Assembly (NCBI GenBank): GCA_005878525.1
Contig: VBMB01000136.1
Coordinates: 14,120 to 62,048, forward strand
DNA from: Methanobacteriota archaeon
Lineage (GTDB): Archaea; Thermoplasmatota; Thermoplasmata; RBG-16-68-12
Direction: 5' to 3'
Length of the DNA stretch: 47,929 nucleotides
Shown here: in pieces, positions 4,781 through 44,936 of the stretch
Numbering within the stretch: position 1 is the first letter of the stretch
Layout of the letters: every line of letters starts with the position of its first letter
The notes under the pieces: generated by a model
Told to the model about the DNA's origin: nothing
What the model saw: only the letters and a program-made list of their open reading frames with translations
Database searches by the model: none
Made by a program: the position numbers and the translations under genes

Positions 4781-4945
4781 TCAGTTGTAGAGGTTGAATT
4801 CGTCCTTCTCCGGGACCGAGTCCCAGTCTTCGTCCCCTTCCTCGAAGACCGCGTTGAAGAGCGCGCTGACGACCTCGCGGAGCTGTTGAATCTCCGTCCG
4901 GAGGCGCGCCAATTCCTTCATCACTTCCTCGTTGGAAGCAGGCAT
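4781..4945 (-). CDS. hypothetical 54-aa coiled-coil/acidic protein (shorter than any ORF listed in the supplied track)
   Basis: My translation: MPASNEEVMKELARLRTEIQQLREVVSALFNAVFEEGDEDWDSVPEKDEFNLYN*. GC3 is very high, like the real genes here. 'AGAGGT' sits 7-8 nt upstream of the ATG, and the TATA-like 'AAAAAGATATGA' (4981-4992, minus strand) is ~40 nt upstream. Confidence 0.5.
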   Translation of the reverse strand: MPASNEEVMKELARLRTEIQQLREVVSALFNAVFEEGDEDWDSVPEKDEFNLYN

Positions 4946-5050
4946 TCACAACCTCTAACCCGTGCTATCACGGGGTAGGTTCATATCTTTTTGCCTTCGA
5001 TTCTTGATGCTAATTCTCGGAACGGAACGGTCACGGCATTTGCGACGGTT

Positions 5051-5821: not shown

Positions 5822-5859
5822 CGACTCCTGCGGGTCGCACGGAGTAGAGCCGTCGGTAT

Positions 5860-6438
5860 TTATCTCTTCCCCACTTCAAGACGATAGAGGACGACGTCGA
5901 TGCGGCGAAGCTCTTCCCGATGGAAGGCGAAGGTGTGGGGAATCGGAAACGCATACGCGAGACGGTCGGTGATCTTCCCGGCCGCAGACTCGATGCGATG
6001 CCGCACGTAGGCTTCGGCCTTCGCGTTCAGGAACGTGTAGACGATGTGGCCTGATGCAAGCGCGGCGTCCAGGAATGGACGGTCTGCATGGCGCCTCTGA
6101 GAACCGAACGGTGGATTCATGAGGACGGTGTCGAAGGTCTCATGGATGGCCTGGACATCGGCGAGGCGCCACGCGACGTCGACCTGCGCACGTTCTGCGT
6201 TCCGCCGCGCGACCTCCACGGCCAATGGATCCGAGTCCACGCCCGCCACGGGCCCCGCGCCGAGAAGTTTCGCGGCGATCGCGAGCACACCGTTCCCGCA
6301 TCCGAGGTCCACGACCGACCGACCCTGGATGTCGCCTTTCGCGTGAGCGAGGTAGGCGACCTCGGCCGCGATTCCCGCGGGCGTCGGATACTGCTCCGCG
6401 GACGGCGCCGGATTCGGGAGCGGATCGAGGGACTCCAA
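5860..6438 (-). CDS. METTL5-like class I SAM-dependent RNA methyltransferase (COG2263, NPPF motif)
   Basis: 'EQYPTP', '[13 protein letters not shown]', '[19 protein letters not shown]'. This is a typical neighbour of csl4 in archaea. The first canonical start is TTG 6438. The family-like N-terminal sequence 'KKVQLERI' continues upstream in frame without an ATG/GTG/TTG, so the true start is uncertain. Confidence 0.8.
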
Positions 6439-6490
6439 AATCCGCTCGAGCTGGACCTTCTTCGTAGGCTCACCTCGCGGAGCGGTCTTC

Positions 6491-7279
6491 TCACTCCTCT
6501 TCCCATGCCGACGCTCGTTTGGTGGCCGCGGTCCCGCGCGGAGTAATCACCGCGGTGAAGTCCGAGGTGCCGTGCCACAGTAGCGTCAGGAGGCCTTCTC
6601 CCTCGAGGCGAGCGAGCTCGCTCTGCAGGTCGTCGAAGTTCACGCCTCGGAGGATCTCGAAGAACTGGTTCTTCTTCAATCCGATCGAGCCGCGTTTGTC
6701 GAGGAGCACCAAGACCTTGTCTCGAAGGCCGCGCTCGACTGCCCGGGCTGCATCTTGGCGGAACGCGCGGTCGACGATCTCGATCGCCAGCGCGTTGAAG
6801 GCGTCCTCCACGAAGGTGCCAGTCCGCGCCGACGTATACACGATCGGGGCGGCAAACGGTTCGGCGACATGGCGGATCTCGTCCTCGGTGATCGCCCGGC
6901 GCTCCTCGAGGTCTTTCTTGTTCACGACCAGGTAAACCGGGACGTCGCCCGCAATCTCGAGCGCGGAGGGGATCCATTCGTTCAGGGCGTACAGGCTGTC
7001 CTTCCGCGTGAGATCGCAGACGCCCATCAGAGCCTGGGAGCCATGGTAGTACGTCTCCCGGACGAGGTCCTTGAATCCCCGCTGGCCCATGATGTCGAAG
7101 ATCGACATGTCCATCTGGACCTCGGTGTCAGCGCCGTGGGGAACCGTGAGCTCGACCTTGCTCACTCGGGTCCCGACCGTGTGGAGATATGTGTCCTGGT
7201 ACTCGTTGAGGACGAACCGCCGGATCAAGGAGGTCTTGCCGACACCGCCCTCTCCCATCAGGGCGAGCTTTGCCTTCAT
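6491..7279 (-). CDS. Ras-superfamily (Rab/Arf-like) small GTPase fused to a C-terminal winged-helix-like domain
   Basis: G1 'GEGGVGKTS', switch I 'YLHTVGT', G3 'DIMGQ', G4 'NKKD', G5 'SAR'. The C-terminal ~75 aa ('[22 protein letters not shown]...[12 protein letters not shown]') look like a wHTH. The TATA-like 'GCTTATACC' (7332-7340, minus strand) favours ATG 7297 or 7279 over 7321. Confidence 0.8.
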
Positions 7280-25348: not shown

Positions 25349-28258
25349 TCACGAGGCGTGGACCGCGTCCTCGATCGCGTAGTAATATTCGCCGGCGGAC
25401 TTCTGCTCTCGATCCAGGCGGGAGTCGAGCTTGTTGATCCGCGGGCGGTTCGTGTCCGCGTCCCGGCGGAACGTGATGCCGACCATTTTCAGGAACTTGT
25501 TCATCCCGTCCCGCATCGGGAATGGACCTTCGCCGACGCCGGTATGGCCCGGATCGCCCGAGAAGACCATGATGCTGTCCGACACCATGTCGATGAAGTA
25601 CACATCGTGGTCGACGATGAGCCCCGTCCGGGCTTCCTTCTCCATGACCCGTCGGATCGTCCGCGCGGCCTCCATCCGCTGATTCGAATCGAGATAGGCG
25701 GACGGCTCGTCGATCAGATAGATGTCCGCATCCCGGCCTAGGCACAGGGCGATCGCGACGCGCTGCAACTCGCCGCCGGACAACGTCGAGACGTCCCGCT
25801 CCAGCATTCCTTTGACCTTGAGCGGCTGGAGGATCTCCGTCTCGAAGTAACCCGTGTCCGCCTTCTTTCCCACCGCGTTGCGAAGCAATTCCCCGACCGT
25901 GCCTTCGTAGACGGCCTCGAGGTATTGCGGCTTGTAGGAGACCTGCCACCGCCCCTCCACGGCGCCCGACGTCGGCGTCTCCTGGCCCGCGAGCATCTTG
26001 ACGAACGTCGTCTTGCCGGTGGCATTTGGCCCGACCACGCCGACGACCTCGCCTTTGCGCAGCCGTCCCGGATGGACGGTGAGCTCGAAGCCCTCGAACC
26101 GTTTCGTGAGTTCGTCAAAAGTGACGAGCGTCTCGGCCTTCCAGTCGCTTCGAGGCGGGCGGGTGTCGAAGCGAATCTCGCGATCTCGGAAACGGATGTT
26201 CTCCTCCTTCAGGTAGCCGCCGAGATACACGTTGATCGCGGTGCGGACCGGCCTCGGCTGCGCGATGATCCCATACGCACCCTCCTCGCCATACATCAGG
26301 AAGACCGTGTCTGCGAGGAAATCAAGGACGGCCAGATCGTGCTCCACGACGACGACGTACTTCTCCTTCGAAAGGGACTGAATGACCTTCGCGACCTGGA
26401 GTCGCTGGTAGATATCGAGATAGGAGGACGGCTCGTCGAAGAAGTAAATGTCGGCCTCTTTGAGCATCGTCGCGGCGATCGCCATGCGTTGCAACTCGCC
26501 GCCGGACAGTTGCGCGATATCCCGGTCAAGGAACGACTCGAGGTCGAGGGACACCGTCAGATCCGCGAGGCGACCTCGCTTGTCGGCTTTCGTCAACAGA
26601 TCCCGGACACGGCCCGTGTAGATCTTGCTCAACTTGTCGACGTACTGCGGCTTGATAGCCGTCGTGAGTTTCTTGTTCGCAATCTTCGCCAAGTAATCGT
26701 GGAGCTCCGTTCCCGCGAAGTAGTCGAGGACTTCTTCCCAGTAAGCCTTCTTTCTCCGATAATGGCCAAGATTGGGCGCGACCTCTCCGCTGAGGAGACC
26801 CACACATGTGGTCTTGCCGATTCCGTTCGGGCCGAGCAGACCGATGACTTCCCCTTTCTTCGGGACCGGGAGACGGAAGAGCCGGAACGCGTTCTTCCCA
26901 TACTGATGGACCAAGTCTTCCTTGAGAGCCTCCGGTAGACCAATAATCCGAATCGCGTCGAACGGACATTTTTTGACGCAATTATGCACCACCTGTCCAG
27001 CCGCAGTATAGGTCTGGTCTTCGTCGACTTCGAGATTGAAAACCTGCAGACTTTCGACAGGGCGAACCTCTATCTTGCGAATCGCAGCGTAAACAAAATC
27101 CGCATCGACAAGGTAGTGACTGGCCTTTCGATTGCGGGTGTCCGAGAATTCTACTTGCAACAACGCGGCCATCTGTTGCGAAAATTCTGCTGTAACATGA
27201 AGGTGGTACACGCGACGCTTCCCTGAAGGGGAACTCGTCGTCACACCCGCGGCGATCCCGAGTCCACTGAGGATCTCCTGCACCTGGTAAGCCAAGTGGG
27301 CGGATGTTGTCACTATGCCGAAGTAGTTGCGGTCGTACTCGCGATGACCGTCGCCTCTCCACAACCCACGAACGAGCTCCTCGCGGACCGCCTTCGGGGC
27401 CGTCATAAAGGCCGGAGGAACAGACTTCTTGTCACACTTTTTCCCGAGAGAGCCGAATACGCGGGCCAGCACAACTGAATCGTATCGAACGTTGCGGCCT
27501 AGGCCCGTATTCTTTGTTTCGTATCCACGAAGACCGAGACTCCGGTGGATGATGCGGCGCACATCATTTCGATAGTTCTGCTCCTTTTCATGAAACGAGA
27601 ACACGAGGCGCCGGTCATCCACAGAACCTTCGGCAAGATAGTATCCGACCAGTCTTCCTAGATCCGGCGTCAACGGTAAGGATACCAACTGATCCGACCA
27701 CTGCGGATATCTGCCCCCGGAGAGGACCATCGGAATCGGAACGTCCCATGAGTCTTGCGCCGCTTCGCGAGTCCTCGGTTTGACGAGATAATCGCCGACC
27801 TTGAGGTCGACTGGCCGAACCCAACGAAGGACTCCCGTTGCCTTTTCGAGTCTCCGTCCACCTTTGATCCGCCGACGAATCACAGCCAGGACTGGATGCT
27901 CCTCGGTAACCTCAAGCGAATCCGGTTGGCCTGTGACCCGAATGCGATACAAGGGCCCATCGTACATACGTGTCTGGACGCGCGTGACGACTCGATACCG
28001 TCCCTGATGCGTGAGAACGCGAGTGCCAACCGTCATCTTGTCTATCGGGACGACTCCGGAATCCGTGGAGATAGGTACTCCTGCCGGGAGGCAGATTCCG
28101 CAGGAGATGCACGTCTCCTCGCTGATCGCGGCCTTCGTGGTCTCCGGATCGATCCAGATGACTTCCGTGCCAGTCCGCTGCGGTGGGCAGAAGGCGATGC
28201 ACTCGAGATGGCAGCGCTTGGGCTGACATCGATCTTTGAATACGACGGCGACGCGCAC
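25349..28258 (-). CDS. abce1: ABCE1 / RNase L inhibitor (ribosome recycling ATPase) carrying a 371-aa intein
   Basis: N-terminal FeS domain 'DRCQPKRCHLECIAFCP' and a split 'CISCGI//CVKKCPF'. Two ABC cassettes ('GPNGIGKTT','LSGGELQR','FFDEPSSYLD'; 'GPNATGKTT','LSGGELQR','LIDEPSAYLD'). The exteins sum to 598 aa. GTG start. Confidence 0.95.
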   Translation of the reverse strand: MRVAVVFKDRCQPKRCHLECIAFCPPQRTGTEVIWIDPETTKAAISEETCISCGICLPAGVPISTDSGVVPIDKMTVGTRVLTHQGRYRVVTRVQTRMYDGPLYRIRVTGQPDSLEVTEEHPVLAVIRRRIKGGRRLEKATGVLRWVRPVDLKVGDYLVKPRTREAAQDSWDVPIPMVLSGGRYPQWSDQLVSLPLTPDLGRLVGYYLAEGSVDDRRLVFSFHEKEQNYRNDVRRIIHRSLGLRGYETKNTGLGRNVRYDSVVLARVFGSLGKKCDKKSVPPAFMTAPKAVREELVRGLWRGDGHREYDRNYFGIVTTSAHLAYQVQEILSGLGIAAGVTTSSPSGKRRVYHLHVTAEFSQQMAALLQVEFSDTRNRKASHYLVDADFVYAAIRKIEVRPVESLQVFNLEVDEDQTYTAAGQVVHNCVKKCPFDAIRIIGLPEALKEDLVHQYGKNAFRLFRLPVPKKGEVIGLLGPNGIGKTTCVGLLSGEVAPNLGHYRRKKAYWEEVLDYFAGTELHDYLAKIANKKLTTAIKPQYVDKLSKIYTGRVRDLLTKADKRGRLADLTVSLDLESFLDRDIAQLSGGELQRMAIAATMLKEADIYFFDEPSSYLDIYQRLQVAKVIQSLSKEKYVVVVEHDLAVLDFLADTVFLMYGEEGAYGIIAQPRPVRTAINVYLGGYLKEENIRFRDREIRFDTRPPRSDWKAETLVTFDELTKRFEGFELTVHPGRLRKGEVVGVVGPNATGKTTFVKMLAGQETPTSGAVEGRWQVSYKPQYLEAVYEGTVGELLRNAVGKKADTGYFETEILQPLKVKGMLERDVSTLSGGELQRVAIALCLGRDADIYLIDEPSAYLDSNQRMEAARTIRRVMEKEARTGLIVDHDVYFIDMVSDSIMVFSGDPGHTGVGEGPFPMRDGMNKFLKMVGITFRRDADTNRPRINKLDSRLDREQKSAGEYYYAIEDAVHAS
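26981..28093 (-). mobile_element. class-1 intein with LAGLIDADG homing-endonuclease domain inside ABCE1
   Basis: Cys1 'CLPAGVPI', block B 'VTEEHPVL', LAGLIDADG-like 'LVGYYLAEGSV' and 'LVRGLWRGDGH', block F/G 'VFNLEVDEDQTYTAAGQVVHN', and +1 Cys. Boundaries were checked codon by codon: TGC at 28091-28093, AAT at 26981-26983. Confidence 0.9.
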
Positions 28259-29004: not shown

Positions 29005-32000
29005 TCATTCCCTCCGACGGCGTGAACGTGCGACCACGAGGGCGATGACAATCGCGATGACGACAATCACGACGATGAGACTGTACGTGACCGTCGGGCT
29101 GCCCAGGATTCCGACGGTCGCCCAGTTCGCGTGCACGACCAACGGGCCGTTCACCGTCACGAAGACTTCGGTCGCGGACGAGCTCACGCCGCCGGTCCAG
29201 CCCGAGAAGCGATACGTCTGTCCGCCGTAGGCCACCTCTTGGGGCGCGCGGAGCGTTGCCTGCGTCCCGGCGGGGTACCAGCCACCCCCATCGATCTGAA
29301 CCTGAATGTCGCTGTCGATACGGACGAGGTATTCGACCTTCCACGTTGCGTGGGCCGTCTTGGGTCCGTCCATCGCGATCAGATTCGACAAGGCGCCGGA
29401 TGATCCCGTCGCGTCCCCGCTCCAACCGGCGAACGCTTGGCGCTCGGTCCCACTCACTGAGATAATCGACGAGTTCACCGACGCGAGGCCGAAGGATCCG
29501 GCCGCGTACCACCCGCTTCCGGAAGCGCTGCCGAATGCAGTTTCCACCGTGAGATAGTATTGCACTTGCCAGACGGCCACGACGAGCTGCGCGCGGTCCA
29601 TCGTGATGGCCGAAGACCCGGACGAGTCGGTACCCGAGGCATCTCCGAACCAGCCTTGGAATAGCGCGCGGGCGCCATTCCCGAGGGAAATCGTCCCCAC
29701 GTCGAGACGCGCCGTGGTCTGCGTGCCGGCGTCATACCAACCCGCGGTCAAGGCCGTGCCATATGCGGTGTCGATTCGGAGATTGTATTGGAGCTTCCAA
29801 CTCGCGATCGCGACCTTCGGTCCGTTCATGAGAATGGGCGCCGAGGTCGTGCCGGATCCCGACGCGTCTCCGCTCCAACCGTTGAAGGCCTGGCGCGATC
29901 CGGAAGAAACGGGCACCGTCCCGGGTGCGGTCGCGTAGGCGGTGTTGCCCGACGCATACCATCCGCCTCCGGTGACCGTGCCGTAGGCGGACTGGACATC
30001 CAGGTAGTATTCTGTGCCGAACAGGGCGATTGCCGTCTTCGGACCGTCCATCAAGATTGGGTCCGATTTCGTGCCGGTTCCGGTCGCGTCTCCACTCCAG
30101 CCTTGGAACGCAAGACGCTCCCCCGGACCGACGGACTGAATCGGGTTCGCGACGGTCGCATAGGCCATCGAACCGCTGAGGTACCAACCTTGGCCGGTGG
30201 ACAGAGGATCCGGAGGGTCAACGGACAGGTAGAATTCTGTTTTGAACCGGGCCGTCAGGGCCATTCCCGCGCTGATCGTAATCGGGTGAGATGGACCGCC
30301 ATGGTCGCTCCATTCGAGATATCGATACCGGACGCCCGGGGCTCCAGATTGCAGCGTGTCGACGGCAATCGTATGGTTCGAACCGAGCGGAAGCCAGAAC
30401 GTGGCAGGGCCCGCCTGGGGCGCTCCGCTGTCCAGCGAGAATTCCAATCCCTCGGGATCGGTTTGCACGAGGAGCGTGCGTTCGGGCTGGAACGTCGCCG
30501 TGACATCCACCGCCGCGTTCGCCGTGACCCCGTGCGCCCGCGCCTCCGAATCGCTCCAGGACACGAAGGCGAAACGAGAATCCGGAGCGATGAACTGGGG
30601 CGACGGCGCTTCGAGCCAATGAGCCGATCCCTGGTCCCACCACAACGTCGTCGGGCCTAGATAGGATGCGTTGTCGACGAGAATGCTGGGACTCGGAGGA
30701 CCCGTCGGGGAAATCGCAAACTTGGCTTGGAACTGTTTCTTGAACGTTGCCACGAGGCTCAGGTCCGTGTCCAAGGTCACGGTGTGCGTTCGGGCACCGC
30801 CGTCGCTCCATGACGTCCAGATGTATCGGGACATGGAGCCAGAGGCCTGCGGATCCGGCATGCTGACCGAATGGGTGGATCCGAGCAAGACGACCTTCTG
30901 GGCTGGACTCGTGTACGTCGTTCCGTCAATCTGGACCTTGAGGCCCGCAGGATTCGTGGAGGCGGTGAGCGTCGCCACAGAGAAGCCGGGGTTTCCTGCG
31001 AAATAAATCTCGTAGTCGGAGCCATCGGAGGTGCGGCCGTCGCTCCAGACGACGTAGGCCTGGTTCTCCGGTCCGGCTTCAATGGCGAAGTAGTCGCCGG
31101 GACGAACGAGAGACGACGACGTCTCCTCGTCCGTGACCCTGAGGTTCGTGGACCACGTCTGGCCGCCATTCGTCGAGTTCGAGTAGAAGATGTTGTGGTT
31201 GCCGGTCCGATCATCGATCCATGCGGCGTGGACGGTCCCCGCGCTGTCGATCGCGAGATCCGGCATCCGCTGATCGCCGGTCGTCACATCGTTCACGCGG
31301 ACGTTGGTGCCCCACGATTGCCCTCCGTTCGTCGAGGCCGCGATCATGATGTCCATCGACCCGCTGCGGCTGTCCGTCCAGATGTTGTAAAGCGTCCCGG
31401 AGTTCGGGTCCACGCCCATCGCCGGCATCGGAAGCGACCATGTTCCGGTCGCCATTGCGGAACCCGGAACGCTGTTGACGCGGACGTCGGTGTGCCAAGT
31501 CATCCCGCGGTCCCAAGACCAGTCGAAGAAGATGTTGTCCGAGTTGAAGTCCCACCACGTCAGGTACACCGTGCCGTTCGACGAAGTCTGGATGATGGCC
31601 CCGAGGACTGCGCAACAAACGTCGTCGGGGAACTTGAACGGCGCCCAATGCGCACCGTCATCGTCGGACCAGCTGACCATCATCTCGTTCCCTTCGTCCC
31701 ATGCGGCGTAAATCCGACCGAACGGATCCACCGCGATCGAGTCCTTGTCCGTGAGCCCTCCCCCACCTGGCATGTAGCGGGCGTTGCTCCATGATCCCCC
31801 ATCGCTTGTGTTGGCGATATTGAGCCCCGCGGGTGGAAATGAACCACAGGTGTACTCCAAGTAGGCGTACTGCACGCGATCGTCAGGCGCGAGGGCCATC
31901 CACGGGTCCGAATTGCAACGACCTTGGTTGGGATGCGTTTGGTTCATGAGAATGTTCGGCGCCCACGTGGCGCCTTGGTTGGTCGAGTAGGACGCTCCAA

Positions 32001-32316
32001 CTCGAATTCCGGCAGCAGTTGTTCCATCGGTTTCCTTCCAGCCAACGAAAATCGTGCCCGAACGGTTCACCGCCATCGTCGGCTCGACTTGATCCGTGAA
32101 GCCAGAAGTCCCGTCCGTCACGCGGATGTTCGGGAAAAACGGCTGCGTGGTCGTCGGAGCGCTCGTCATAGACAGTCCCGGAACGCTCGCGGACCCGTTC
32201 GGGACGTGACTCGAGGTGGCCACCGCGAAGCCGGGCGATGCCACCGCGAGACATCCAAAGACTATCAGAACGCGAAGTAAGCCAGAGGGCGGCATCCGCC
32301 TCTCCCCGCTTATCAA
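29005..32316 (-). CDS. large surface protein: signal peptide, BNR/Asp-box beta-propeller, eight Ig-like repeats, C-terminal TM anchor
   Basis: Signal-like 'LLRVLIVFGCLAVASPGFAVA'. Six Asp-boxes ('STNQGATW','TSDGGSWS','SDDDGAHW','SWDRGMTW','STNGGQSW','STNGGQTW'). Repeats with 'F.GWSGDA.G......I.MDGPK.A.A.W'. Anchor 'LIVVIVVIAIVIALVVA' followed by 'RSRRRRE'. Confidence 0.8.
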   Translation of the reverse strand: MISGERRMPPSGLLRVLIVFGCLAVASPGFAVATSSHVPNGSASVPGLSMTSAPTTTQPFFPNIRVTDGTSGFTDQVEPTMAVNRSGTIFVGWKETDGTTAAGIRVGASYSTNQGATWAPNILMNQTHPNQGRCNSDPWMALAPDDRVQYAYLEYTCGSFPPAGLNIANTSDGGSWSNARYMPGGGGLTDKDSIAVDPFGRIYAAWDEGNEMMVSWSDDDGAHWAPFKFPDDVCCAVLGAIIQTSSNGTVYLTWWDFNSDNIFFDWSWDRGMTWHTDVRVNSVPGSAMATGTWSLPMPAMGVDPNSGTLYNIWTDSRSGSMDIMIAASTNGGQSWGTNVRVNDVTTGDQRMPDLAIDSAGTVHAAWIDDRTGNHNIFYSNSTNGGQTWSTNLRVTDEETSSSLVRPGDYFAIEAGPENQAYVVWSDGRTSDGSDYEIYFAGNPGFSVATLTASTNPAGLKVQIDGTTYTSPAQKVVLLGSTHSVSMPDPQASGSMSRYIWTSWSDGGARTHTVTLDTDLSLVATFKKQFQAKFAISPTGPPSPSILVDNASYLGPTTLWWDQGSAHWLEAPSPQFIAPDSRFAFVSWSDSEARAHGVTANAAVDVTATFQPERTLLVQTDPEGLEFSLDSGAPQAGPATFWLPLGSNHTIAVDTLQSGAPGVRYRYLEWSDHGGPSHPITISAGMALTARFKTEFYLSVDPPDPLSTGQGWYLSGSMAYATVANPIQSVGPGERLAFQGWSGDATGTGTKSDPILMDGPKTAIALFGTEYYLDVQSAYGTVTGGGWYASGNTAYATAPGTVPVSSGSRQAFNGWSGDASGSGTTSAPILMNGPKVAIASWKLQYNLRIDTAYGTALTAGWYDAGTQTTARLDVGTISLGNGARALFQGWFGDASGTDSSGSSAITMDRAQLVVAVWQVQYYLTVETAFGSASGSGWYAAGSFGLASVNSSIISVSGTERQAFAGWSGDATGSSGALSNLIAMDGPKTAHATWKVEYLVRIDSDIQVQIDGGGWYPAGTQATLRAPQEVAYGGQTYRFSGWTGGVSSSATEVFVTVNGPLVVHANWATVGILGSPTVTYSLIVVIVVIAIVIALVVARSRRRRE
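29119..30984 (-). repeat. eight tandem ~75-85-codon InlB-B-repeat-like modules within the surface protein
   Basis: Residues ~445-1066. Recurring 'x(F/Y)xxWSxxx....(I/V)T(M/L)xxxxxxxAx(F/W)...(Y/F)xLx(V/I)....G...GxGWY..G'. The last five copies are clearly more similar to each other than to the first three. Confidence 0.7.
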
Positions 32317-33546: not shown

Positions 33547-34257
33547 ATGGGCCAGGGAGACCGTATCCGCACCTTCATCCACGGTTTTGACGACAAGCTC
33601 GGGGGCGGCATCCCCGAAGGCCACGTCGTCCTCCTCGCGGGAGAGCCCGGGACGATGAAGTCCACGATCGCGTTCAACATGATCTATCAAAACGCGCTTC
33701 GCGACGGGAGGCCGGGCACCTACATCTCCCTGGAACAAGGCCGCGAGAACCTCACGCGCCACCTGGACCAGATGAGCCTGAGCCCGCGGGATGTCGAGAA
33801 CAAAGTCAGCATCGTGGACCTCGGCATGATCCGTCGCAACCTCGACGGGATGGCCGACCGCACGTGGCTCGAGATCTTCAAGATGTATGCGATGAACCTG
33901 AAGCGCTCCCTCAACTACGACATCCTCGTCGTCGATTCGCTCCCGGTCCTCGAAGTCATGTCGCGGTTCGAAAACCCGCGCGAAGATCTCTTTCAGCTGT
34001 TCGAGTGGATCCGCGATCTGAAGGCGACCACGATCCTGATCAGCGAGATGAAACCGGGCAGCGAGGACTTCGGCAAGAACGGCGAGGAGTATCTCAGCGA
34101 TGGGATCATTCACACGAAGATGGAACGCGTCGACGACGCGAACATCCAGCGACGGATTCGGTGCGTGAAACTCCGCGGCACGAACCATTCGCCGAACTAC
34201 TACACGCTCATCTTCCAGAGTGGGATCTTGCAGGCGACCCGGATCATCGCGGAGTGA
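33547..34257 (+). CDS. KaiC-like / RecA-superfamily single-domain ATPase
   Basis: 'GFDDKLGGGIPEGHVVLLAGEPGTMKST' (Walker A), 'ILVVDSL' (Walker B), 'TTILISEM' and 'IRCVKLRGTNHS'. The TATA-like 'GGTTATACG' is ~30 nt upstream of ATG 33547. The ORF track starts at 33484. Confidence 0.8.
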   Translation: MGQGDRIRTFIHGFDDKLGGGIPEGHVVLLAGEPGTMKSTIAFNMIYQNALRDGRPGTYISLEQGRENLTRHLDQMSLSPRDVENKVSIVDLGMIRRNLDGMADRTWLEIFKMYAMNLKRSLNYDILVVDSLPVLEVMSRFENPREDLFQLFEWIRDLKATTILISEMKPGSEDFGKNGEEYLSDGIIHTKMERVDDANIQRRIRCVKLRGTNHSPNYYTLIFQSGILQATRIIAE

Positions 34258-34307
34258 ACCCGCATCGGAACCGATTTTCGATTTCGAATTTGGGCCAAAA
34301 GTCTAAT

Positions 34308-37300
34308 GTGCGCGCCGTCGCATCTCGCGATCCCGAGGCACAGGCCCGCCGCCTGCGCGTCCGAAGGAGGCACGGCCACACGGCCCTTCTCGTCGTTCGT
34401 GTTTTCGTGACGCTTGCGCTCGCGATGTTCCTCCTCGTCCAACTGCCTTCTCCCGGCCCGCGCCCGGCCGTGCCCGCGGCCGTCCCAATCAGTAGCCCCG
34501 TGACGTTCCGCACCGATGCGACCGAGGCGGAAATTACCGCAGCCGGTGCCCATCTCCTCGAATCGTACGCATCGTTCGCCGTTGCGCGCGGCTCCGAACG
34601 AACCCTCGCGCTCCTCCGTTCACACGGACGATACGCAATGCCGTTCGCGCGCGCATCGGAGCTCCAATTCGCAGCGGGGGCCGTAGATGTGGCGGCGCTC
34701 CCGTCTCCCTCGACATGGTGGTCCGAAGATTCTCGCGGGATGAGCGTCGGTGTCGTCCACTTCGATGCACCGATCAAGTCGGCGTGGCAGGACGAGCTGG
34801 CGTCACGCGGCCTCGCGCTTCTTCGATACGTCCCGCAAGACGGGTTCGTGGTCCGTGGTCGGCCGTCGGATCTCCGAGGTGCGTCCTCCCTGCCATACGT
34901 AGACTGGGTGGGGCCCTACGAAGCCGCTTGGAAGATTCGCCCGGGGACGCCGACCACCGGCGTCGTGAACGTTCGGATCGTCGTCCTCCCGGGAGAAAGT
35001 CCCGAGACGGTTGAAGCCTGGCTCGGCCATGCGGGAATCCCGGCGGACAACGGGGCGGGAATGGGGCCGGGCCTCCTGGGCGCGTTCGGAACCGGAGACT
35101 TCCGATGGGTCCTCGCTCGAATTCCCGCGGGGCTCGTCTCCCCGCTCGCGGACCAGGGCGCGGTCGAGTTCATCGATCCGGTCCAGCCGGTCCATCCTTG
35201 GAACGCAGAAACGGACTGGGTGATCCAGACGAACGTCACCGGGAACGACCGGTATTGGAGCTACGGCCTTGACGGGACCGGACAGGTGATCGGGATGGCC
35301 GACACCGGCCTCGACTATGACGGCCCGCCGTTCCGACAGAGTGCCGCGGCGATCACGCTCGGGGACATCTACAACACGACAGACTCGGCCCGACGCAAGG
35401 TCGTACGGTACGTGAATATGGGCGTCCTCTCGGGAGCGCTCACGTGGCCGGGAGGCGGCGGCCCCTGGGATCCGTTCTCGATCAAGGACTGCGCGAACGG
35501 CCACGGGACCGGAGTCGCATCGACCTTGGCGGGGAACGATAACGGAATCGGCGCTTCGCCGAACGAAGGGAACGCCTTGGGCGCGAAAATCTACCTTCAA
35601 GACATCGGCGGTTTCCAAGGCCTCGCGATTTGTCCGAACGAGGGACTCATCTACATCCCGGAGAACTACAACGATCTCTTCGGCCCAGCCGGGCTCGTCT
35701 ACAACGATCCGGCGGCGCCGGTCCGGATTCACAGCGATAGCTGGGGTGCGGACACGAACGTGTACGACGTCCAGGCGCGGATGGTCGACGCGTTCGTCTG
35801 GGCTCATCCGGACATGACGATCGTCTTCGCCGCCGGGAATGCCGGCAGCAACGCCGGGACGATCGGAACGCCGGCGACCGCGAAGGATGTGGTCGCCGTC
35901 GGCGGAGCGTACAACCCGGACACCGCCGGAGGCTTGGATCAGAACGACTTGGCGCCGCAAGCAAGCCGCGGGCCGACCACCGACGGACGGATCAAACCGA
36001 CGATCGTCACGATTTTCGACGGCGACTCCGCGATGTCGGATGGCGACCCGTTGAGCGGGACCGGCCTTGCGGACGCGCACTGGGCGGGGACGAGTTACTC
36101 GACGCCGGCGGCGGCCGCCGCGGCGGCAATCATCCGCCAGTACTTCGTGGACGGATGGTATCCCTCCGGCGCCCCGATCGCGAACAACTCGATGAACCCG
36201 AGCGCCGCGCTCATCCGCGCGATCCTCATTGCGTCCGGACAGCAGGTCACCGGGAGCGGGACCGTCGCTCGGTCTTCGACGGACACCTGGCCGAACAACG
36301 AACAGGGATTCGGGCGAGTCCTCCTGTCGAAGGTCCTTCCGATCTCGGCGGTGGGAGACACATTTCGAACGCAGGTGGTCGATGGGACCGCGGGACTGCT
36401 CGCCGGGGACGACGCCGCGTACACGTTCCGCGTGAGCTCCGCGGGCCCCGCGAAATTCGTCCTGACATGGAGCGATTACCCCGGGACGATCGGAGCGACC
36501 AAGGCCCTCGTGAACGACCTGGACCTCGAGGTGACCGCGCCGGGAGGGACCGTGTACCGGGGGAACCATTTCGCGCCGTTCGCGCAGGGCCAGTCCCTGC
36601 CCGGCGGGACGTTCGACACGACGAACGTCGAAGAGGCGGTGATCCTGAAGAGCGCGATGGCAGGGGACTGGTCGGTCCGGGTGATCGGATCCAATGTCCC
36701 TGTAGGCCCGCAGCCGTTCGCGCTCGTTACGACGGGCAACTTGGACACCTCCTACAGTCGGCTGACACTGGACCGGGTCGTGTACTCGGAGGCGGACAGG
36801 ATCCGCATTTCGGTGGACGACTCCGACGCGACGTCAGTCATCGCGCACGTCTCCTCGAATATCGAGCCGGCGGGAGAGAACGTCACGCTGACTCGGGGAG
36901 GCCCAGACGAGACCTGGCACGGCTCGATTGCCACCGCGTTCGGGACCGCGACGCCGGACAATGTGCTCCAGGTGCGCGAGGGAGACATCGTCACGGCGGC
37001 GTACCAGGACATCTCGCCCCGGCACACCGCGACGGCGAACGCGAATATCCTCGCGAGCGGCCCGACGATTCACGACGTGACCGTGGTTTCGATCGGCTCG
37101 ACCACGGCGACGGTTCGGTGGACCACGAACGAGCCTGCGACGACGGAAGTGAGATACGGCACGGGCGTCGGCGCGTTGACCTTCGGCGCGAACGCGTCCG
37201 ACCTCCGAACGGCGCACACGATTACACTGACGCGTCTCCGCCCCGAGACGCTCTACTATCTCGAGGTCACCTCCCGCGGACGGCTCGCGAACGCGACCAC

Positions 37301-37973
37301 GGACACGAACGATGGGACCGAATACCAGTTCCAAACGTCGCGGATGGGCGACGTCCTTCTCGTTGTGGGCGGGAGCTCGTTCCCTCCCGAGCGTGAAGCC
37401 TCGTACGCCGCCGCGTTCGACGAGGACGGATGGACGTGGTCCTTGTGGCGCGTCGCGGAGCTCGGGCTTCCTCCCCTCGGAGTCCTGCAAACCCGTCGCG
37501 CGGTGATCTGGCAGGTCGGACTGGAGCAGTACCCGCCGTTCAATGCGTCCGCGAGAGCGTTGGTGCAGAGCTATCTGGACGGTGGCGGGCGACTGATCGT
37601 CTCCTCTCACGACGCCGCGTGGGCCCTCGGAGGTTCGTCATCCCCGTTCGCGACCGCCGAAACGGAGTCCTGGGTCCGGGCGGTGCTCAAGGCGACGTTT
37701 GTGTGCGACCCTCTGACAATCGGTCAAGCGAAGGGCGTTTCCTCGGACCCGATCAGCGGTTCGTATGCGGGAGGCGTCCTCTACACGCCCCACCGGGACG
37801 GAGGGGCCGACGACCAGCTCTCTCCGAGTGCGGCGGGCGGGACGACTTTGACGGATTGGACGGACGGTCTGGTCCAAAGTCCGTCCGGGGGGCCGTTGTG
37901 TGCCCAAAATCAGCCGATCGGACTTCGTTGGGTCTCCTCGTCGCCAAACGGCACCGCTGGCCAAGGCGTGTAG
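34308..37973 (+). CDS. secreted subtilisin-like (S8) serine protease with FN3-like and GATase1/ThuA-like modules; ends at an in-frame TAG
   Basis: Signal/TM 'ALLVVRVFVTLALAMFLLVQLP'. Catalytic triad blocks 'GMADTGLDYDG', 'HGTGVASTLAGN' and 'GTSYSTPAAAAAAAII'. FN3-like 'TATVRWTTNEPATTEVRYG'. The GTG 34308 start is tentative (TTG 34290 is possible). Confidence 0.8.
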   Translation: MRAVASRDPEAQARRLRVRRRHGHTALLVVRVFVTLALAMFLLVQLPSPGPRPAVPAAVPISSPVTFRTDATEAEITAAGAHLLESYASFAVARGSERTLALLRSHGRYAMPFARASELQFAAGAVDVAALPSPSTWWSEDSRGMSVGVVHFDAPIKSAWQDELASRGLALLRYVPQDGFVVRGRPSDLRGASSLPYVDWVGPYEAAWKIRPGTPTTGVVNVRIVVLPGESPETVEAWLGHAGIPADNGAGMGPGLLGAFGTGDFRWVLARIPAGLVSPLADQGAVEFIDPVQPVHPWNAETDWVIQTNVTGNDRYWSYGLDGTGQVIGMADTGLDYDGPPFRQSAAAITLGDIYNTTDSARRKVVRYVNMGVLSGALTWPGGGGPWDPFSIKDCANGHGTGVASTLAGNDNGIGASPNEGNALGAKIYLQDIGGFQGLAICPNEGLIYIPENYNDLFGPAGLVYNDPAAPVRIHSDSWGADTNVYDVQARMVDAFVWAHPDMTIVFAAGNAGSNAGTIGTPATAKDVVAVGGAYNPDTAGGLDQNDLAPQASRGPTTDGRIKPTIVTIFDGDSAMSDGDPLSGTGLADAHWAGTSYSTPAAAAAAAIIRQYFVDGWYPSGAPIANNSMNPSAALIRAILIASGQQVTGSGTVARSSTDTWPNNEQGFGRVLLSKVLPISAVGDTFRTQVVDGTAGLLAGDDAAYTFRVSSAGPAKFVLTWSDYPGTIGATKALVNDLDLEVTAPGGTVYRGNHFAPFAQGQSLPGGTFDTTNVEEAVILKSAMAGDWSVRVIGSNVPVGPQPFALVTTGNLDTSYSRLTLDRVVYSEADRIRISVDDSDATSVIAHVSSNIEPAGENVTLTRGGPDETWHGSIATAFGTATPDNVLQVREGDIVTAAYQDISPRHTATANANILASGPTIHDVTVVSIGSTTATVRWTTNEPATTEVRYGTGVGALTFGANASDLRTAHTITLTRLRPETLYYLEVTSRGRLANATTDTNDGTEYQFQTSRMGDVLLVVGGSSFPPEREASYAAAFDEDGWTWSLWRVAELGLPPLGVLQTRRAVIWQVGLEQYPPFNASARALVQSYLDGGGRLIVSSHDAAWALGGSSSPFATAETESWVRAVLKATFVCDPLTIGQAKGVSSDPISGSYAGGVLYTPHRDGGADDQLSPSAAGGTTLTDWTDGLVQSPSGGPLCAQNQPIGLRWVSSSPNGTAGQGV

Positions 37974-39953: not shown

Positions 39954-40100
39954 TTGAGCGTCTCTTCCATCGACGGCGAAGCGACATCCGCCGAGATCCA
40001 CAGCGGTCTCCAAATCAGGTGTCCCGAATGCCGCGCGGCCCTCCAGCACGTGGACGGCTGCACTCGATGTGGTGTGTGCGGGTACTCGCAATGCGAGTGA
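39954..40100 (+). CDS. possible 48-aa zinc-ribbon protein
   Basis: TTG start. 'RCPECRAALQHVDGCTRCGVCGYSQC' has CxxC...CxxCxxC. The TATA-like 'CCTTTTAGG' is ~35 nt upstream. Weak. Confidence 0.3.
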   Translation: MSVSSIDGEATSAEIHSGLQIRCPECRAALQHVDGCTRCGVCGYSQCE

Positions 40101-40191
40101 ATCTGCGCGACGCGCGTTTGTTCCAGTGGAAATGGTCCGACCTATACTCACGCTTAAGAGATGGACCAGTGGAAGGGGGACTCAAAACGAT

Positions 40192-42342
40192 ATGACCATT
40201 CCCGATGCTGCGCCGTTTCCGAGCCGGGGGAAGGAAGTGCTCGTCGAGTTTCCGCAGGATGAGCTGATCGCGAAGTGGGAGGAGTTCTTCGAGGAGATGG
40301 GTTACCTCTCGAAGATCATCGCGGTGGCGGACCGCTATCCCGAGTCGCGGAGCCTCGAAGCTTCGTTCCTGGACCTGAACCGCTTCGACACGGACATGGC
40401 GATCTATCTCTTGCGGCACCCACTGAACGTCCTGATGGCGGGCGAGGAAGCGATTCGTCGCCTCGTGCCGCCCGGAGAAGAGGCCCCCCAGATCCACCTC
40501 CGGATCAGCGGCCTCCCCCGGGACCGCCGAGTGCAGATTCGGGATCTGCGGGCGAAGCATCTCGGCCAATACATCTCGGTCGAAGGCCTGGTTCGCAAGA
40601 GCACGGAAGTGCGTCCCAAGGTCGTGGGGGCTCTGTTCCAGTGCCTGCGCTGCGGGACGATCATCAAGGAAGAGCAAGACGGCCAGACGTTCCGAGAGCC
40701 CCTCGAGTGTTACGAGGAACAGGGGGGTTGCAAGCGCTCTGCGAGTGCGACGAAGTTCAAACTCTTGACGGAGACGTCGCTGTACCTGGACACGCAAAAG
40801 ATCGAAGTCCAAGAATCGCCGGAGGGCCTGCGGGGCGGCGAGGAGCCGCAGCGGCTCAGCGCCTACGTCGAAGACGACTTGACGGGTCGCATCACACCCG
40901 GGCAGCGCGTGATCTTGAACGGCGTGCTCCGGAGCGTCCAGCGCGGACGACCGGGGCAGCGCTCGACTCTCTTCGACATCTTCGTGGACGTCAACTCGGT
41001 CGAGATGGAACGGGTCGAGTTCGAGGAGATCGAGGTGACGGAGGAGGACGCCCACCGGATCCGGGAGATCGGATCGAGCCCCGATATCTTCCGGTTGATC
41101 ACCGCGTCGATCGCGCCCTCGATCTATGGGATGCACGTGGAGAAGGAGGCCCTCGCCCTCCAGCTGTTTGGCGGGGTCGCGAAGATCATGCCCGACGGGC
41201 GGCGGATCCGCGGAGATATCCATCTGATCCTGGTCGGAGATCCGGGAACGGGCAAGAGCGAGCTCTTGTCCTACATGATCCGGCTCTCCCCCCGCGGAAT
41301 CTACGCGACGGGGAAGGCCGCTTCGGCGGCGGGCCTGACCGCAGCCGCCGTCCGGGACGAATTCGGCGAGGGCCGATGGACCCTCGAAGCGGGAGCCTTG
41401 GTCCTTGCCGATCTCGGGCTCGCCGCCATCGACGAAATCGAGAAAATGAATCCACAAGACCGGTCGGCGATCCACGAAGCGATGGAGCAGCAGCGGATCA
41501 GCGTCGCGAAGGCAGGCATCACGGCCGTCCTCCAATCCCGGTGCGCGATCCTCGCCGCCGCGAACCCGAAGTTCGGCCGGTTCGACGAGCACAAGTACAT
41601 CTCCGAGCAAATCGACTTGCCGCCCGCGCTGCTCAGCCGGTTCGACATCATCTTCTCGATCATAGATCGCCCGCAGACGGACCGCGACCGCGAGCTCGCG
41701 GAGCACATCCTCAAAGGACACAAGGTTGGAGAGATCCGGCGGCGACGCGAGGCGGGCTTCGCCGTGGAAGAGTCGACGCTCCTCGAGGAACCCTTCACGC
41801 CCCATTTCGACCCGGACTTCTTCCGTAAGTACGTCGCCTATGCGAAGCGCATTTACCCGGTGATGACGGACGAGGCGATGGAGATCATCGAAAAGAAGTA
41901 CTTGGAGATCCGGAAGACCGGGGAGGCCGCGGGCTCCAGCGTGCCCATCACCCCGCGGCAGTTGGAGGCGATCATCCGGCTCTCGGAGGCCGGCGCTCGG
42001 CTCCGGTTGAGCGAGGCGGTCGACGCGGAAGACGCGGAGCGTGCGGTACGGATCGTCGAGTACTGGATGGGCAAAGTCGCCGGCGAGGAAGGGCGCTTCG
42101 ACATCGACATCATCCAGACCGGGATCAGCCAGTCGCAACGCGAGCAGATCATCTCGATCCGCGACATCATCAACGAGCTCGCGGGCCCCGAAGGCGTCGC
42201 GGACTACGAGGACATCGTGCGGATCGCGCAGGAGCGTGGTATCCCGCCCGCGAAAGTCGACGCGTGGTTGAAGCGCTGGGCCCAGGAGGGCGAGATTTAT
42301 AGCCCCGCGAAAAACAAGTATAAGCTCGTCGAGCGGTTGTAA
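40192..42342 (+). CDS. mcm: MCM replicative helicase
   Basis: Zn finger 'CLRCG', Walker A 'LILVGDPGTGKSELL', Walker B 'AAIDEIEKM', 'SVAKAGI', Arg finger 'LLSRFDIIF', and a C-terminal wH. At 716 aa there is no intein. Confidence 0.95.
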   Translation: MTIPDAAPFPSRGKEVLVEFPQDELIAKWEEFFEEMGYLSKIIAVADRYPESRSLEASFLDLNRFDTDMAIYLLRHPLNVLMAGEEAIRRLVPPGEEAPQIHLRISGLPRDRRVQIRDLRAKHLGQYISVEGLVRKSTEVRPKVVGALFQCLRCGTIIKEEQDGQTFREPLECYEEQGGCKRSASATKFKLLTETSLYLDTQKIEVQESPEGLRGGEEPQRLSAYVEDDLTGRITPGQRVILNGVLRSVQRGRPGQRSTLFDIFVDVNSVEMERVEFEEIEVTEEDAHRIREIGSSPDIFRLITASIAPSIYGMHVEKEALALQLFGGVAKIMPDGRRIRGDIHLILVGDPGTGKSELLSYMIRLSPRGIYATGKAASAAGLTAAAVRDEFGEGRWTLEAGALVLADLGLAAIDEIEKMNPQDRSAIHEAMEQQRISVAKAGITAVLQSRCAILAAANPKFGRFDEHKYISEQIDLPPALLSRFDIIFSIIDRPQTDRDRELAEHILKGHKVGEIRRRREAGFAVEESTLLEEPFTPHFDPDFFRKYVAYAKRIYPVMTDEAMEIIEKKYLEIRKTGEAAGSSVPITPRQLEAIIRLSEAGARLRLSEAVDAEDAERAVRIVEYWMGKVAGEEGRFDIDIIQTGISQSQREQIISIRDIINELAGPEGVADYEDIVRIAQERGIPPAKVDAWLKRWAQEGEIYSPAKNKYKLVERL

Positions 42343-43316: not shown

Positions 43317-44242
43317 ATGTTTTGCGTCGAGTGCGGAGCCGAAGGGCCGACGTATCAGGGCCTCTGCGCCCGGGACTTCCTGAAGAAACATCCCGTCGTG
43401 GCACCACCGGAGGTCCTCGACATCGAACGATGCACGTCCTGCGGCTCGTTCCGGCTGAAATCGGGCTGGTCCAAGATCGACCGCGAACTCGCGCTCACGG
43501 GACTACTTCGCGAGGCGATCCCGAAGCTCTCGCCGTGGGAACGGGTAACTTTCACCCACGTCGCCCGCGACGAGGATGCGAACAACCTCTCGCTGACCGT
43601 CAAGGCGCTCGGACGGTTCGAGGATCTGCAGTCCGTCCAGGACTTTCGGCTTCGCGTGCGCATCAAGCCGTCTCTCTGCGATTCGTGCGCGAAGCAGCGG
43701 GGTCGGTACTTCGAAGGCACCTTGCAGGTCCGCGGAGACGGCCGCGAACTCACGCCGCAGGAAATGCGCGGCGTGCGAACGTTCGTGATCGCCCGCGTGG
43801 ACCGGGCCGGGGATCCGGCGGCGTTCGTCTCGCGGATCGAGGAGGTCCACGGCGGCCTCGACTTCTACCTGAGCACGAACGCCCTCGGCAAGGCGCTCGC
43901 CCGCGAGCTCTCGGAGTCGTTCGGCGGGAGCGTGTCCTCGTCCCCGAAGCTGTTCGGCCAGAAGGAGGGCCGCGAGGTCTACCGCGTGACGTCCCTCGTC
44001 CGCCTCGGCCCGTTCCACATCGGCGACGTCGTGCGATACAAGGAATCCCTCGCCGAGGTGACGTCGGTCCGACCGTTCGTCGACACCTGGAGTCCGGCCA
44101 GATCGTCGCGGTCCATCCGGAGTCTGAGGAGGCGCGGCCTGTGCGCCCTCCGCCGAAGGGACGGACCGCACATGCGGTCGTCGTGTGGACCCAGGACGGG
44201 GCGTACTTGTCGCTCCTCCCGCCGCAGAGTTCGAAGCCTTAA
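43317..44242 (+). pseudogene. nmd3: NMD3-family (pre-60S/50S associated) protein with an apparent 1-nt frameshift near 44084
   Basis: The N-terminus has 'MFCVECG...GLC..C', 'CTSCGSF', 'LCDSCAKQRGRYFEGTLQVRG' and 'GGLDFYL' in frame 3. After '...VRPFVD', protein-like sequence continues in frame 2 ('LESGQIVAVHPESEEARPV...AVVVWTQDGAYLSLLPP', TAA at 44240-44242), while frame 3 becomes Arg/Ser-rich junk. Confidence 0.7.
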
Positions 44243-44267
44243 AGGGCGCGGCGACTTTGTCCAAGCA

Positions 44268-44936
44268 ATGAAGGTAGCCCTGGGCTGTCGGGCCCTGGAC
44301 GACCTCCTGGGCGGGGGAGTCGAGGAAGGCTGCATCACGCTCCTGCACGGGGAGGCGGGGAGCGGCAAGACGAACTTCTGCTTGCAGCTCGCCCGGAACG
44401 TCGTCCGCGCGGGTCACAAGGTGATCTACATCGACACGGAGGGCGTGTCCCTCGACCGCCTCCAGCAGATGTGCGGCGACGATTTCGACGTCGTGGTGAA
44501 GAACATCCTGTTCTCGGAGCCATACAGTTTCGAGGAACAAGAAAAGCGGATCGAGGAGGCCGTCAAGCTGGCGGACGGCAATCCCAAAGTCGGACTCATC
44601 GTGATCGACAGCATCACGATGCACTACCGCCTCACGATGCGGGACGAGACCCGCCGGGATGAACGGTACGGCCTCACGCGGCAGATTGCGAAGCTGCTGC
44701 GCGCGTCTCGAGTCCGCGGCATCCCCGTCGTGGTCACGTCGCAGGTTTACACGGACATCGAGACGGGGGCGTACATGCCGCTCGGCGGCCACATGCTCAG
44801 TCACAACGCGAAGACGATTGTGCGCTTCGAGCGGACCGGGGTGAGCACCCGGGCCGCGGTCCTCGTCAAGCATCGCCACCGGGAGGAGGGCGCGCGGGCC
44901 ACGTTCCGGATCACGGCCCACGGGCTCGAGGACTAG
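44268..44936 (+). CDS. radB: DNA repair/recombination protein RadB
   Basis: 'LDDLLGGGVEEGCITLLHGEAGSGKTNFCLQLA' (Walker A), 'LIVIDSIT' (Walker B). 222 aa, with no N-terminal HhH domain. Confidence 0.85.
   Translation: MKVALGCRALDDLLGGGVEEGCITLLHGEAGSGKTNFCLQLARNVVRAGHKVIYIDTEGVSLDRLQQMCGDDFDVVVKNILFSEPYSFEEQEKRIEEAVKLADGNPKVGLIVIDSITMHYRLTMRDETRRDERYGLTRQIAKLLRASRVRGIPVVVTSQVYTDIETGAYMPLGGHMLSHNAKTIVRFERTGVSTRAAVLVKHRHREEGARATFRITAHGLED

Follow-up and report, generated by a model that had tools for sequence, protein, structure and literature searches.

The chemistry of class-1 inteins has been reviewed (PMC10663303), and for two inteins a dependence of splicing on disulfides is described: in Pyrococcus abyssi MoaA a native Cys(−3)–Cys1 disulfide controls splicing, and the Pab PolII intein is blocked by a Cys1–Cys+1 disulfide (PMC3922620; PMC10663303). 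Core transcription and translation components are said to “contain few inteins” in the survey of Novikova et al. (2016; PMC4760082), and the list of the top-15 archaeal hosts given there, which is the list compared here, does not include ABCE1. We have analysed 47,929 nucleotides of DNA from a Methanobacteriota archaeon of soil, placed in the Thermoplasmata by GTDB (assembly GCA_005878525.1, contig VBMB01000136.1, positions 14,120 to 62,048; the whole of this stretch is called the window), in which the gene for ABCE1/RLI carries an insert that its sequence and modelled fold identify as a class-1 intein with a nested double-motif LAGLIDADG endonuclease. ABCE1 is an essential ribosome-recycling factor of archaea and eukaryotes. 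A literature search brought up no paper that treats inteins together with ABCE1, RNase L inhibitor or the recycling of ribosomes, which is consistent with the suspicion voiced in the first-pass annotation of this DNA that ABCE1 is not a classical intein host; the sequences themselves are already public under generic names. Within the searchable literature this is, apparently, a known kind of element in a new host and at a new insertion site.

We consider it very probable that the ABCE1 intein is a mobile element with an apparently functional endonuclease, carried by its host gene as a passenger; its splicing and DNA cleavage activities we infer.

The intein and its site in ABCE1

The anatomy of the precursor and the exact site of the insert can be read directly. 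The parts of the gene, with positions in the window, are as follows.

25349..28258, (−) strand: ABCE1/RLI precursor gene, 969 aa plus stop, GTG start (from the list of open reading frames, ORFs)
28094..28258, (−) strand: N-extein, 55 aa (translation)
28184–28228, (−) strand: first ferredoxin motif CQPKRCHLECIAFCP in the N-extein
28094–28111, (−) strand: CISCGI, the first half of the second ferredoxin motif, with Cys at −6 and −3
26981..28093, (−) strand: intein, 371 aa, precursor residues 56–426, Hint with nested LAGLIDADG
28091..28093, (−) strand: Cys1, the first nucleophile (block A, CLPAG)
27896..27907, (−) strand: block B TEEH (TxxH)
27158..27679, (−) strand: LAGLIDADG endonuclease domain, intein residues ~139–312
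27620–27652, (−) strand: LAGLIDADG motif 1, LVGYYLAEGSV, acidic residue E155
27344–27376, (−) strand: LAGLIDADG motif 2, LVRGLWRGDGH, acidic residue D248
26981..27043, (−) strand: blocks F and G, VFNLEVDEDQTYTAAGQVVHN (VFNLEV...VVHN), with the penultimate His and terminal Asn
26978–26980, (−) strand: +1 Cys, C-extein residue 1 and third Cys of the second ferredoxin motif
26963–26980, (−) strand: CVKKCP at the start of the C-extein
25349..26980, (−) strand: C-extein, 543 aa plus stop, twin ABC ATPase body (translation)

The boundaries CGI/CLPAGVPI and QVVHN/CVKKCP (a slash marks a splice junction here and below) place the intein at exactly 26981..28093 and the insertion point between the second and third Cys of the CxxCxxCxxxCP motif. 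The exteins sum to 598 aa (55 + 543, by translation) and score 860 bits against the NCBIfam equivalog NF009945 (RLI), for which the cut-off is 469; Pfam finds Fer4_RLI and two ABC_tran domains on the precursor. The computed 598-aa spliced product aligns over residues 1–590 to P. abyssi ABCE1 (3bk7, 3j15) with 701 bits. Its second motif, CISCGICVKKCP, lies gapless against CTGCGICVHKCP of that protein (3bk7, 3j15), the junction stretch CISCGICVKKCPFDAI stands opposite CTGCGICVHKCPFNAI with zero gap at the junction, and all eight ferredoxin cysteines (CX4CX3CX3CP ... CX2CX2CX3CP) are present and aligned. The predicted spliced junction peptide is ...AAISEETCISCGICVK. The first-pass annotation had proposed a 969-aa ABCE1 ORF with exteins totalling 598 aa, an insert at 26981–28093 inside the second ferredoxin motif, and a +1 nucleophile that is itself the third Cys of this motif. 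The lengths and the family match bear out the first of these proposals, the boundaries prove correct to the base, alignment of the exteins to intein-free ABCE1 puts them at the same place, and the gapless alignment of the spliced motif bears out the third. Cys1, TEEH, His-Asn, the +1 Cys and both LAGLIDADG motifs all lie where it had put them.

Family models and fold prediction agree on the nature of the insert. LAGLIDADG_3 (PF14528) is found at 1.3e-14 over two stretches and Hom_end (PF05204) at 6.9e-5, above its cut-off, in Pfam; Intein_splicing (6.6e-7) and Hint_2 (2.3e-5) are significant, slightly under their curated cut-offs. In NCBIfam, TIGR01443 (intein_Cterm) scores 16.3 bits against a cut-off of 15.6, and the insert matches the intein portions of the intein-containing RpoA'', Tes, GyrA, DnaB and RecA models. 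An AlphaFold2 (AF2) model of the intein, built on ten ABCE1 inteins, has a pLDDT of 85.9 and a pTM of 0.84. Its best match in the Protein Data Bank (PDB) by Foldseek is the TliVMA intein (7qsu, E 3e-20, TM 0.74), and PhoVMA, PI-SceI, PI-PkoII and PI-PfuI are also among the top matches (E 3e-20 to 1.6e-12). Model residues ~139–312 superpose on I-DmoI (target-normalised TM 0.67–0.75) and also on the endonuclease domains of PI-SceI and PI-PfuI.

The residues expected to act in splicing are highly conserved. Cys1 is invariant in all ABCE1 inteins (18/18 non-redundant) and in 69 related inteins, and T63 and H66 of block B and H370 and N371 of block G are invariant as well. On the host side, C11, C16, C20, C24, C50 and C53 of the N-extein are invariant in 22 homologues. 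The two acidic residues of the endonuclease are kept in 17/18 (E155) and 18/18 (D248) of the non-redundant inteins, and the block D lysine, Lys223, in 18/18. In block F the ABCE1 intein has Asn353 and Gln360 at positions where the Mtu RecA intein has Asp and His. We considered the Asn-for-Asp replacement as a special feature of the ABCE1 intein and rejected it: the block F Asn is shared with the SufB, NuoI site-a (see below) and 25 other related inteins, and is common to the whole wider group.

Carriers, empty alleles and intein history

The intein is patchily distributed among close relatives. A protein search with the whole precursor, in which proteins were clustered at the 90% identity level, gave ~31 clusters with the intein (961–977 aa) and ~89 without it among the best 120 ABCE1 clusters; the intein-free clusters are ~598 aa long and 73–94% identical over the aligned exteins. 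The named carrier proteins come from Thermoplasmata, Euryarchaeota or “Methanobacteriota” metagenome-assembled genomes (MAGs). Seventeen full-length carrier proteins have the same site, Cys1, HN and +1 Cys, with 57–86% identity in the intein and 65–98% in the exteins. Among genomes scanned at one per GTDB species, 13 carry the intein; they are Thermoplasmata, Thermoplasmatota, Methanomassiliicoccales or “Methanobacteriota” MAGs of soil or sediment, with an identical insertion site and no stop codon in any of them. Intein-free orthologues of 598 aa occur at 83–97% extein identity. In two of the empty alleles, L015 (97% extein identity) and L001, the DNA runs uninterrupted across the junction, and the NAC / ABCE1 / amidohydrolase synteny is shared.

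One set of intein-free entries needs comment. Several proteins of C-extein length, 542 aa (P0094–P0101), might be taken for parts of a split gene or a split intein. They begin at a GTG (Val) directly after the +1 Cys codon and have lost the Fe-S domain. The L001 gene is intact:

4833–6629 of public contig ERZ25039477 contig_17467: intein-free ABCE1 of L001, TTG start, 598 aa

We therefore reject the split-gene and split-intein explanations and regard the 542-aa calls as mis-called starts, that is, an annotation artefact. Carriers have no public name other than “LAGLIDADG family homing endonuclease, partial” in some cases and “ATP-binding cassette subfamily E protein 1” in others. Among the entries P0304, P0306, P0315, P0347 and P0124, names have apparently been passed on by way of the intein portion. 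Such endonuclease names and the 542-aa truncations hide an essential marker gene in MAG annotation. One archaeal fragment of ABCE1 with intein is labelled “Candidatus Methylomirabilales bacterium” and is probably a mis-binned contig.

The coding sequence is under strong purifying selection. Between the window and L002, its closest allele, the ratio of nonsynonymous to synonymous divergence (dN/dS) is 0.09 for the intein (0.08 for the endonuclease, 0.10 for the splicing domain) and 0.04 for the C-extein. One may ask whether, instead of a working intein, the insertion is the decayed remnant of one, a chimera made in assembly, or part of an ABCE1 pseudogene. Although the source assembly is of metagenome type, and the Intein_splicing and Hint_2 matches fall slightly under their curated cut-offs, the insert is in frame and stop-free in 13 independent species genomes, every splicing residue is invariant, a Hint and LAGLIDADG fold is confidently predicted, and the exteins have the dN/dS expected for an essential gene. 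This explanation is largely refuted, and we give it hardly any credence.

The histories of intein and host gene are observed to disagree. The exteins of L002 and L004 are at equal distance from those of the window (dN 0.026 and 0.027), whereas their inteins differ threefold in distance (dN 0.078 and 0.224), and P0007 is 98% identical in the exteins but only 69% in the intein. Together with the patchy presence and the empty alleles in close relatives, an intein history that differs from that of the host is the population signature of homing. Since intein and extein divergence disagree between lineages, the ABCE1 intein looks like a live homing element, active or active until very recently and exchanged among related lineages. 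In the proposed route of spread, the endonuclease would cut an intein-free ABCE1 gene at a conserved site of ~48 bp and repair would copy the intein in; homing into intein-free alleles would explain the patchy presence among close relatives.

It is also conceivable that the splicing domain works and the endonuclease is inactive, the intein being in a late stage of the homing cycle and passing by vertical inheritance with occasional loss. All members of the intein clade come from a single archaeal lineage, phage and viral collections gave no close relatives (best identity at most 27%), and in one of the 18 non-redundant ABCE1 inteins Gly replaces the first of the catalytic acidic residues. This change of E155 points to endonuclease decay in at least one lineage of ABCE1 inteins. 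However, both LAGLIDADG acidic residues and Lys223 of block D are conserved, the dN/dS of 0.08 in the endonuclease is as low as that in the splicing domain, very close relatives have empty alleles, and the mismatch between intein and extein (L002 against L004; P0007) argues for exchange between lineages. General inactivity of the endonuclease is thus, in our view, an unlikely account of these data.

A viral vector for the intein was considered as well. The phage and viral collections searched hold no close relatives of it, the best matches being inteins in unrelated genes with 22–27% identity, and on these low identities we reject a viral vector.

Base composition gives no date for the arrival of the intein. 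Its GC content is 56.2%, compared with 60.7% for the exteins and 64.1% for the window, and the contrast is plainer at third codon positions (GC3), where it has 0.61 against 0.80–0.81 for the exteins. The first-pass annotation had taken low GC as consistent with recent horizontal arrival. Its four hand counts were right (0.50, 0.50 and 0.55 in the insert vs 0.683 in an extein), but they came from favourable stretches, and the conclusion drawn from them is unsupported: in 13 of 13 alleles, deeply diverged ones included, the GC3 of the intein is 0.60–0.76 vs 0.81–0.95 in the bulk of the C-extein. Low GC3 thus belongs to the intein lineage as such and says nothing on when it reached this genome, and we reject it as a sign of recent arrival. 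A second dip lies in the first 75 codons of the C-extein (26756–26980), where GC3 is 0.67–0.75 in occupied and empty alleles against 0.84–0.93 in the rest of ABCE1. We considered a co-conversion tract at this position and rejected it because the dip of the window (0.67) is there in the empty alleles L015 (0.68) and L001 (0.75) too; it belongs to this part of the gene, has no relation to the intein and is no scar of homing.

Most simply, then, the ABCE1 intein is a selfish passenger, one that would persist because its site encodes indispensable cluster ligands, so that an imprecise loss would be lethal. Several points weigh against this reading. All source sequences are MAGs or metagenome contigs. 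With 48 kb of the carrier genome in view, a second, intein-free copy of ABCE1 may lie elsewhere. The usable dN/dS values come from the closest comparisons only, dS being saturated against most alleles, and the low dN/dS of the endonuclease domain might in part be due to purifying selection for folding and splicing of the precursor rather than for endonuclease activity in itself.

Junction cysteines and the nearest other inteins

By the family mechanism of class-1 inteins, from which the steps are taken, the gene would be translated as a 969-aa precursor in which Cys1, aided by Thr63 and His66 of block B, carries out an N-S acyl shift. The resulting thioester would be attacked by the +1 Cys (transesterification), Asn371 would cyclise with the aid of His370, and an S-N shift would ligate ...CISCGI to CVKKCP... 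to give the normal 598-aa ABCE1. Each active ABCE1 molecule in a carrier would thus first have to undergo a splicing reaction that rebuilds the cluster-binding motif.

In proteins with 2x[4Fe-4S] of the clostridial type, each cluster is held by three Cys of one motif and the CP Cys of the other. We take the ABCE1 clusters to follow this ligand pattern. On this pattern both clusters need ligands from both sides of the junction, those of the C-extein being C427 and C431, and full assembly of the clusters should therefore follow splicing or need a formed junction. The ABCE1 intein may serve as a natural test case of whether splicing competes with the insertion of Fe-S clusters or the two take place in a set order. 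The precursor carries the arrangement C(−6)xxC(−3)xxC1, in which C53-G-I-C56 forms a CxxC of Cys(−3) with Cys1; C53 is invariant.

This arrangement raises the question, which the first-pass annotation had put as a plausible redox or Fe-S condition on splicing, of whether the intein now serves its host as a conditional switch. Oxidising surroundings or a shortage of Fe-S would trap the precursor, through a Cys(−3)–Cys1 or Cys1–Cys+1 disulfide or through metal or cluster binding at the junction cysteines, so that active ABCE1, with its oxidant-labile clusters, would be made only when conditions allow. The invariant Cys53 (−3) and Cys50 (−6) fit such a switch, the disulfides of the MoaA and Pab PolII inteins are precedents for it (PMC3922620; PMC10663303), and in yeast the Fe-S clusters of Rli1/ABCE1 are labile to reactive oxygen species (ROS), Rli1 being a growth-limiting ROS target (PMC3442406). 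The nearest relatives of the intein are also found at cluster-ligand cysteines, in NuoI-like proteins, SufB and one IscU-type protein. The cysteines at −3 and −6 are, however, present as ligands of the host clusters, so that they give no evidence of selection for a trap; many near relatives lack the intein; and an intact endonuclease with discordant intein and extein histories is the signature of a selfish homing element, not of a fixed regulator. As an alternative to the selfish passenger, co-option as a switch strikes us as improbable, and taking all the evidence together we would place it between improbable and somewhat worse than that. Broader still is the proposal that the ABCE1 intein and its NuoI look-alikes are more than passengers: with Cys1, the +1 Cys and the cysteines at −3 and −6 crowded at the junction as thiols of the cluster-ligand type, the redox state, or the supply of Fe-S or metal, would gate splicing in both, by a disulfide trap or by binding of a cluster or metal to these thiols. 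This, or else the related idea that these inteins jump by motif sequence, we hold to be rather improbable. If gating were true, oxidative stress or Fe-S supply would act at the post-translational level on how much ribosome-recycling factor is made, and through it on the capacity for translation, and the locus offers a natural case for asking whether redox-trap control of the MoaA kind extends to the translation apparatus.

The relatives themselves were collected by an exhaustive phmmer search of 1.84 billion representatives, which gave 8036 matches, 124 of them at E ≤ 1e-30. Ranked by single-domain scores, the best inteins outside ABCE1 are these.

NuoI-like 2x[4Fe-4S] proteins, site b (the motif position equivalent to that in ABCE1): e.g. 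P0171, CVFCGL/C...TSN/CVDACPFDAL; 217, 206, 200, 191 and 185 bits
SufB: HYVEG/C...HN/C[ST]AP; 196 and 187 bits
NuoI-like proteins, site a (before the first motif Cys): DYGR/C...HN/CVFCGFC; 180 bits

The NuoI inteins are abundant in metagenomes of Bathyarchaeia, Thermoproteota and Nitrososphaerales, where their genes stand in NuoD / NuoI / FrhB-type operons, of the complex-I / hydrogenase kind; no paper on them was found in the literature search, and they are known as public sequences. Entries P0156, P0157, P0158 and P0376–P0384 have two full-length inteins six residues apart in a single CxxCxxCxxxCP motif, at site a before its first Cys and at site b before its third, and the site-a intein of P0158 looks like a mini-intein.

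In a neighbour-joining tree with 100 bootstraps, the ABCE1 (100%), NuoIa (100%), NuoIb (99%) and SufB (96%) inteins are each monophyletic. The order between these groups has low bootstrap support, ABCE1 with both NuoI groups receiving 47% and with either of them alone 13–14%, and an exclusive clade of ABCE1 and NuoI inteins is no more than a candidate grouping. Mean identities of the ABCE1 inteins to the other groups are similar (NuoIb 0.34, NuoIa 0.33, SufB 0.33, other inteins 0.29), and so are those by domain (0.32–0.38 for NuoIb, NuoIa and SufB alike), with no domain-specific signal. A DNA target shared with NuoI was also considered. The reconstituted site of one NuoI allele (L016, of the CCFCHF/CTDYCP type) matches the ABCE1 site in 23/48 bases, and a shared target is rejected for this allele, the closer CVFCGL/CVDACPFD type being outside the comparison. 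That one intein lineage hops between unrelated proteins by way of a shared CxxCGxCVxxCPFDA-coding sequence is an attractive lead, not a result. The NuoI look-alikes, at the equivalent place in their motif, are a hint that inteins could use a short protein or DNA motif common to unrelated genes as a landing pad, an idea that bears on how inteins reach new hosts.

Wider relatives of the intein (P0135, P0128, P0164, P0169 and P0207) cluster in Fe-S biology. They include SufB (HYVEG/C.../C[ST]AP), a scaffold of the IscU/NifU type with its +1 Cys in CAAAIATSS, and another ferredoxin-like protein, in which the junction lies directly before CIADGICLQVCP. This clustering may reflect a link with Fe-S proteins or the usual preference of inteins for conserved Cys, both being compatible with it.

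By tblastn there is no further intein in the window. Three classical archaeal intein hosts encoded there, MCM, RtcB and a Rad51/RadA-like ATPase, are intein-free, and two large proteins, both probably secreted or surface proteins, flank the ABCE1 region; L001 likewise has a large subtilase of this sort close to ABCE1.

40069–42342, (+) strand: MCM, 757 aa
13399–15261, (+) strand: RtcB, with an N-terminal extension of 184 aa, probably due to a start called too far upstream
43317–44936, (+) strand: Rad51/RadA-like ATPase, 539 aa, with an NMD3 domain (residues 3–230) and a Rad51 domain (317–539) in one frame, perhaps a fusion or else two genes that the ORF lister has run together
29005–32316, (−) strand: 1103-aa protein with BNR and InlB B-repeat domains and a hydrophobic C-terminal stretch
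33864–37973, (+) strand: 1369-aa subtilase with a purple-acid-phosphatase N-domain

Comparison with described inteins

SufB inteins (e.g. that of Mycobacterium tuberculosis and that of Ferroplasma, listed in InBase) resemble the ABCE1 intein in having an Fe-S related host and a conserved, functional +1 Cys, and are 33% identical to it; they differ in host and in motif (HYVEG/C...HN/C[ST]AP), and form a clade of their own with 96% bootstrap support. The NuoI-like inteins come closer. Their site b, CVFCGL/C...N/CVDACPFDAL, is homologous to the ABCE1 site, CISCGI/C...N/CVKKCPFDAI, they agree in size and architecture, and they have the best scores outside ABCE1, while the host protein and archaeal phylum are different and mean identity is 34%.

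With the P. abyssi MoaA intein the likeness is one of arrangement: a Cys(−3) of the N-extein that makes a CxxC with Cys1, in an oxygen-sensitive Fe-S host (PMC3922620, PMC10663303). Redox control was shown by experiment in MoaA, whereas in ABCE1 the arrangement is seen in the sequence; moreover, the −3 Cys of ABCE1 itself ligates a cluster of the mature host protein.

The canonical LAGLIDADG class-1 inteins (PI-SceI/VMA1, TliVMA, PhoVMA, PI-PkoII and PI-PfuI) have a sequence identity of 11–17%, in the solved inteins, to that of ABCE1, and differ from it in host and site, which are new to the literature as searched. They are alike in the following: both have Cys1, TxxH, His-Asn and a +1 Cys, a block D Lys and, in each of two LAGLIDADG motifs, an acidic residue; the modelled fold of the ABCE1 intein superposes on 7qsu, 7qss, 7qst, 1vde, 2cw7 and 1dq3; and the insertion is at a conserved functional motif of an essential protein.

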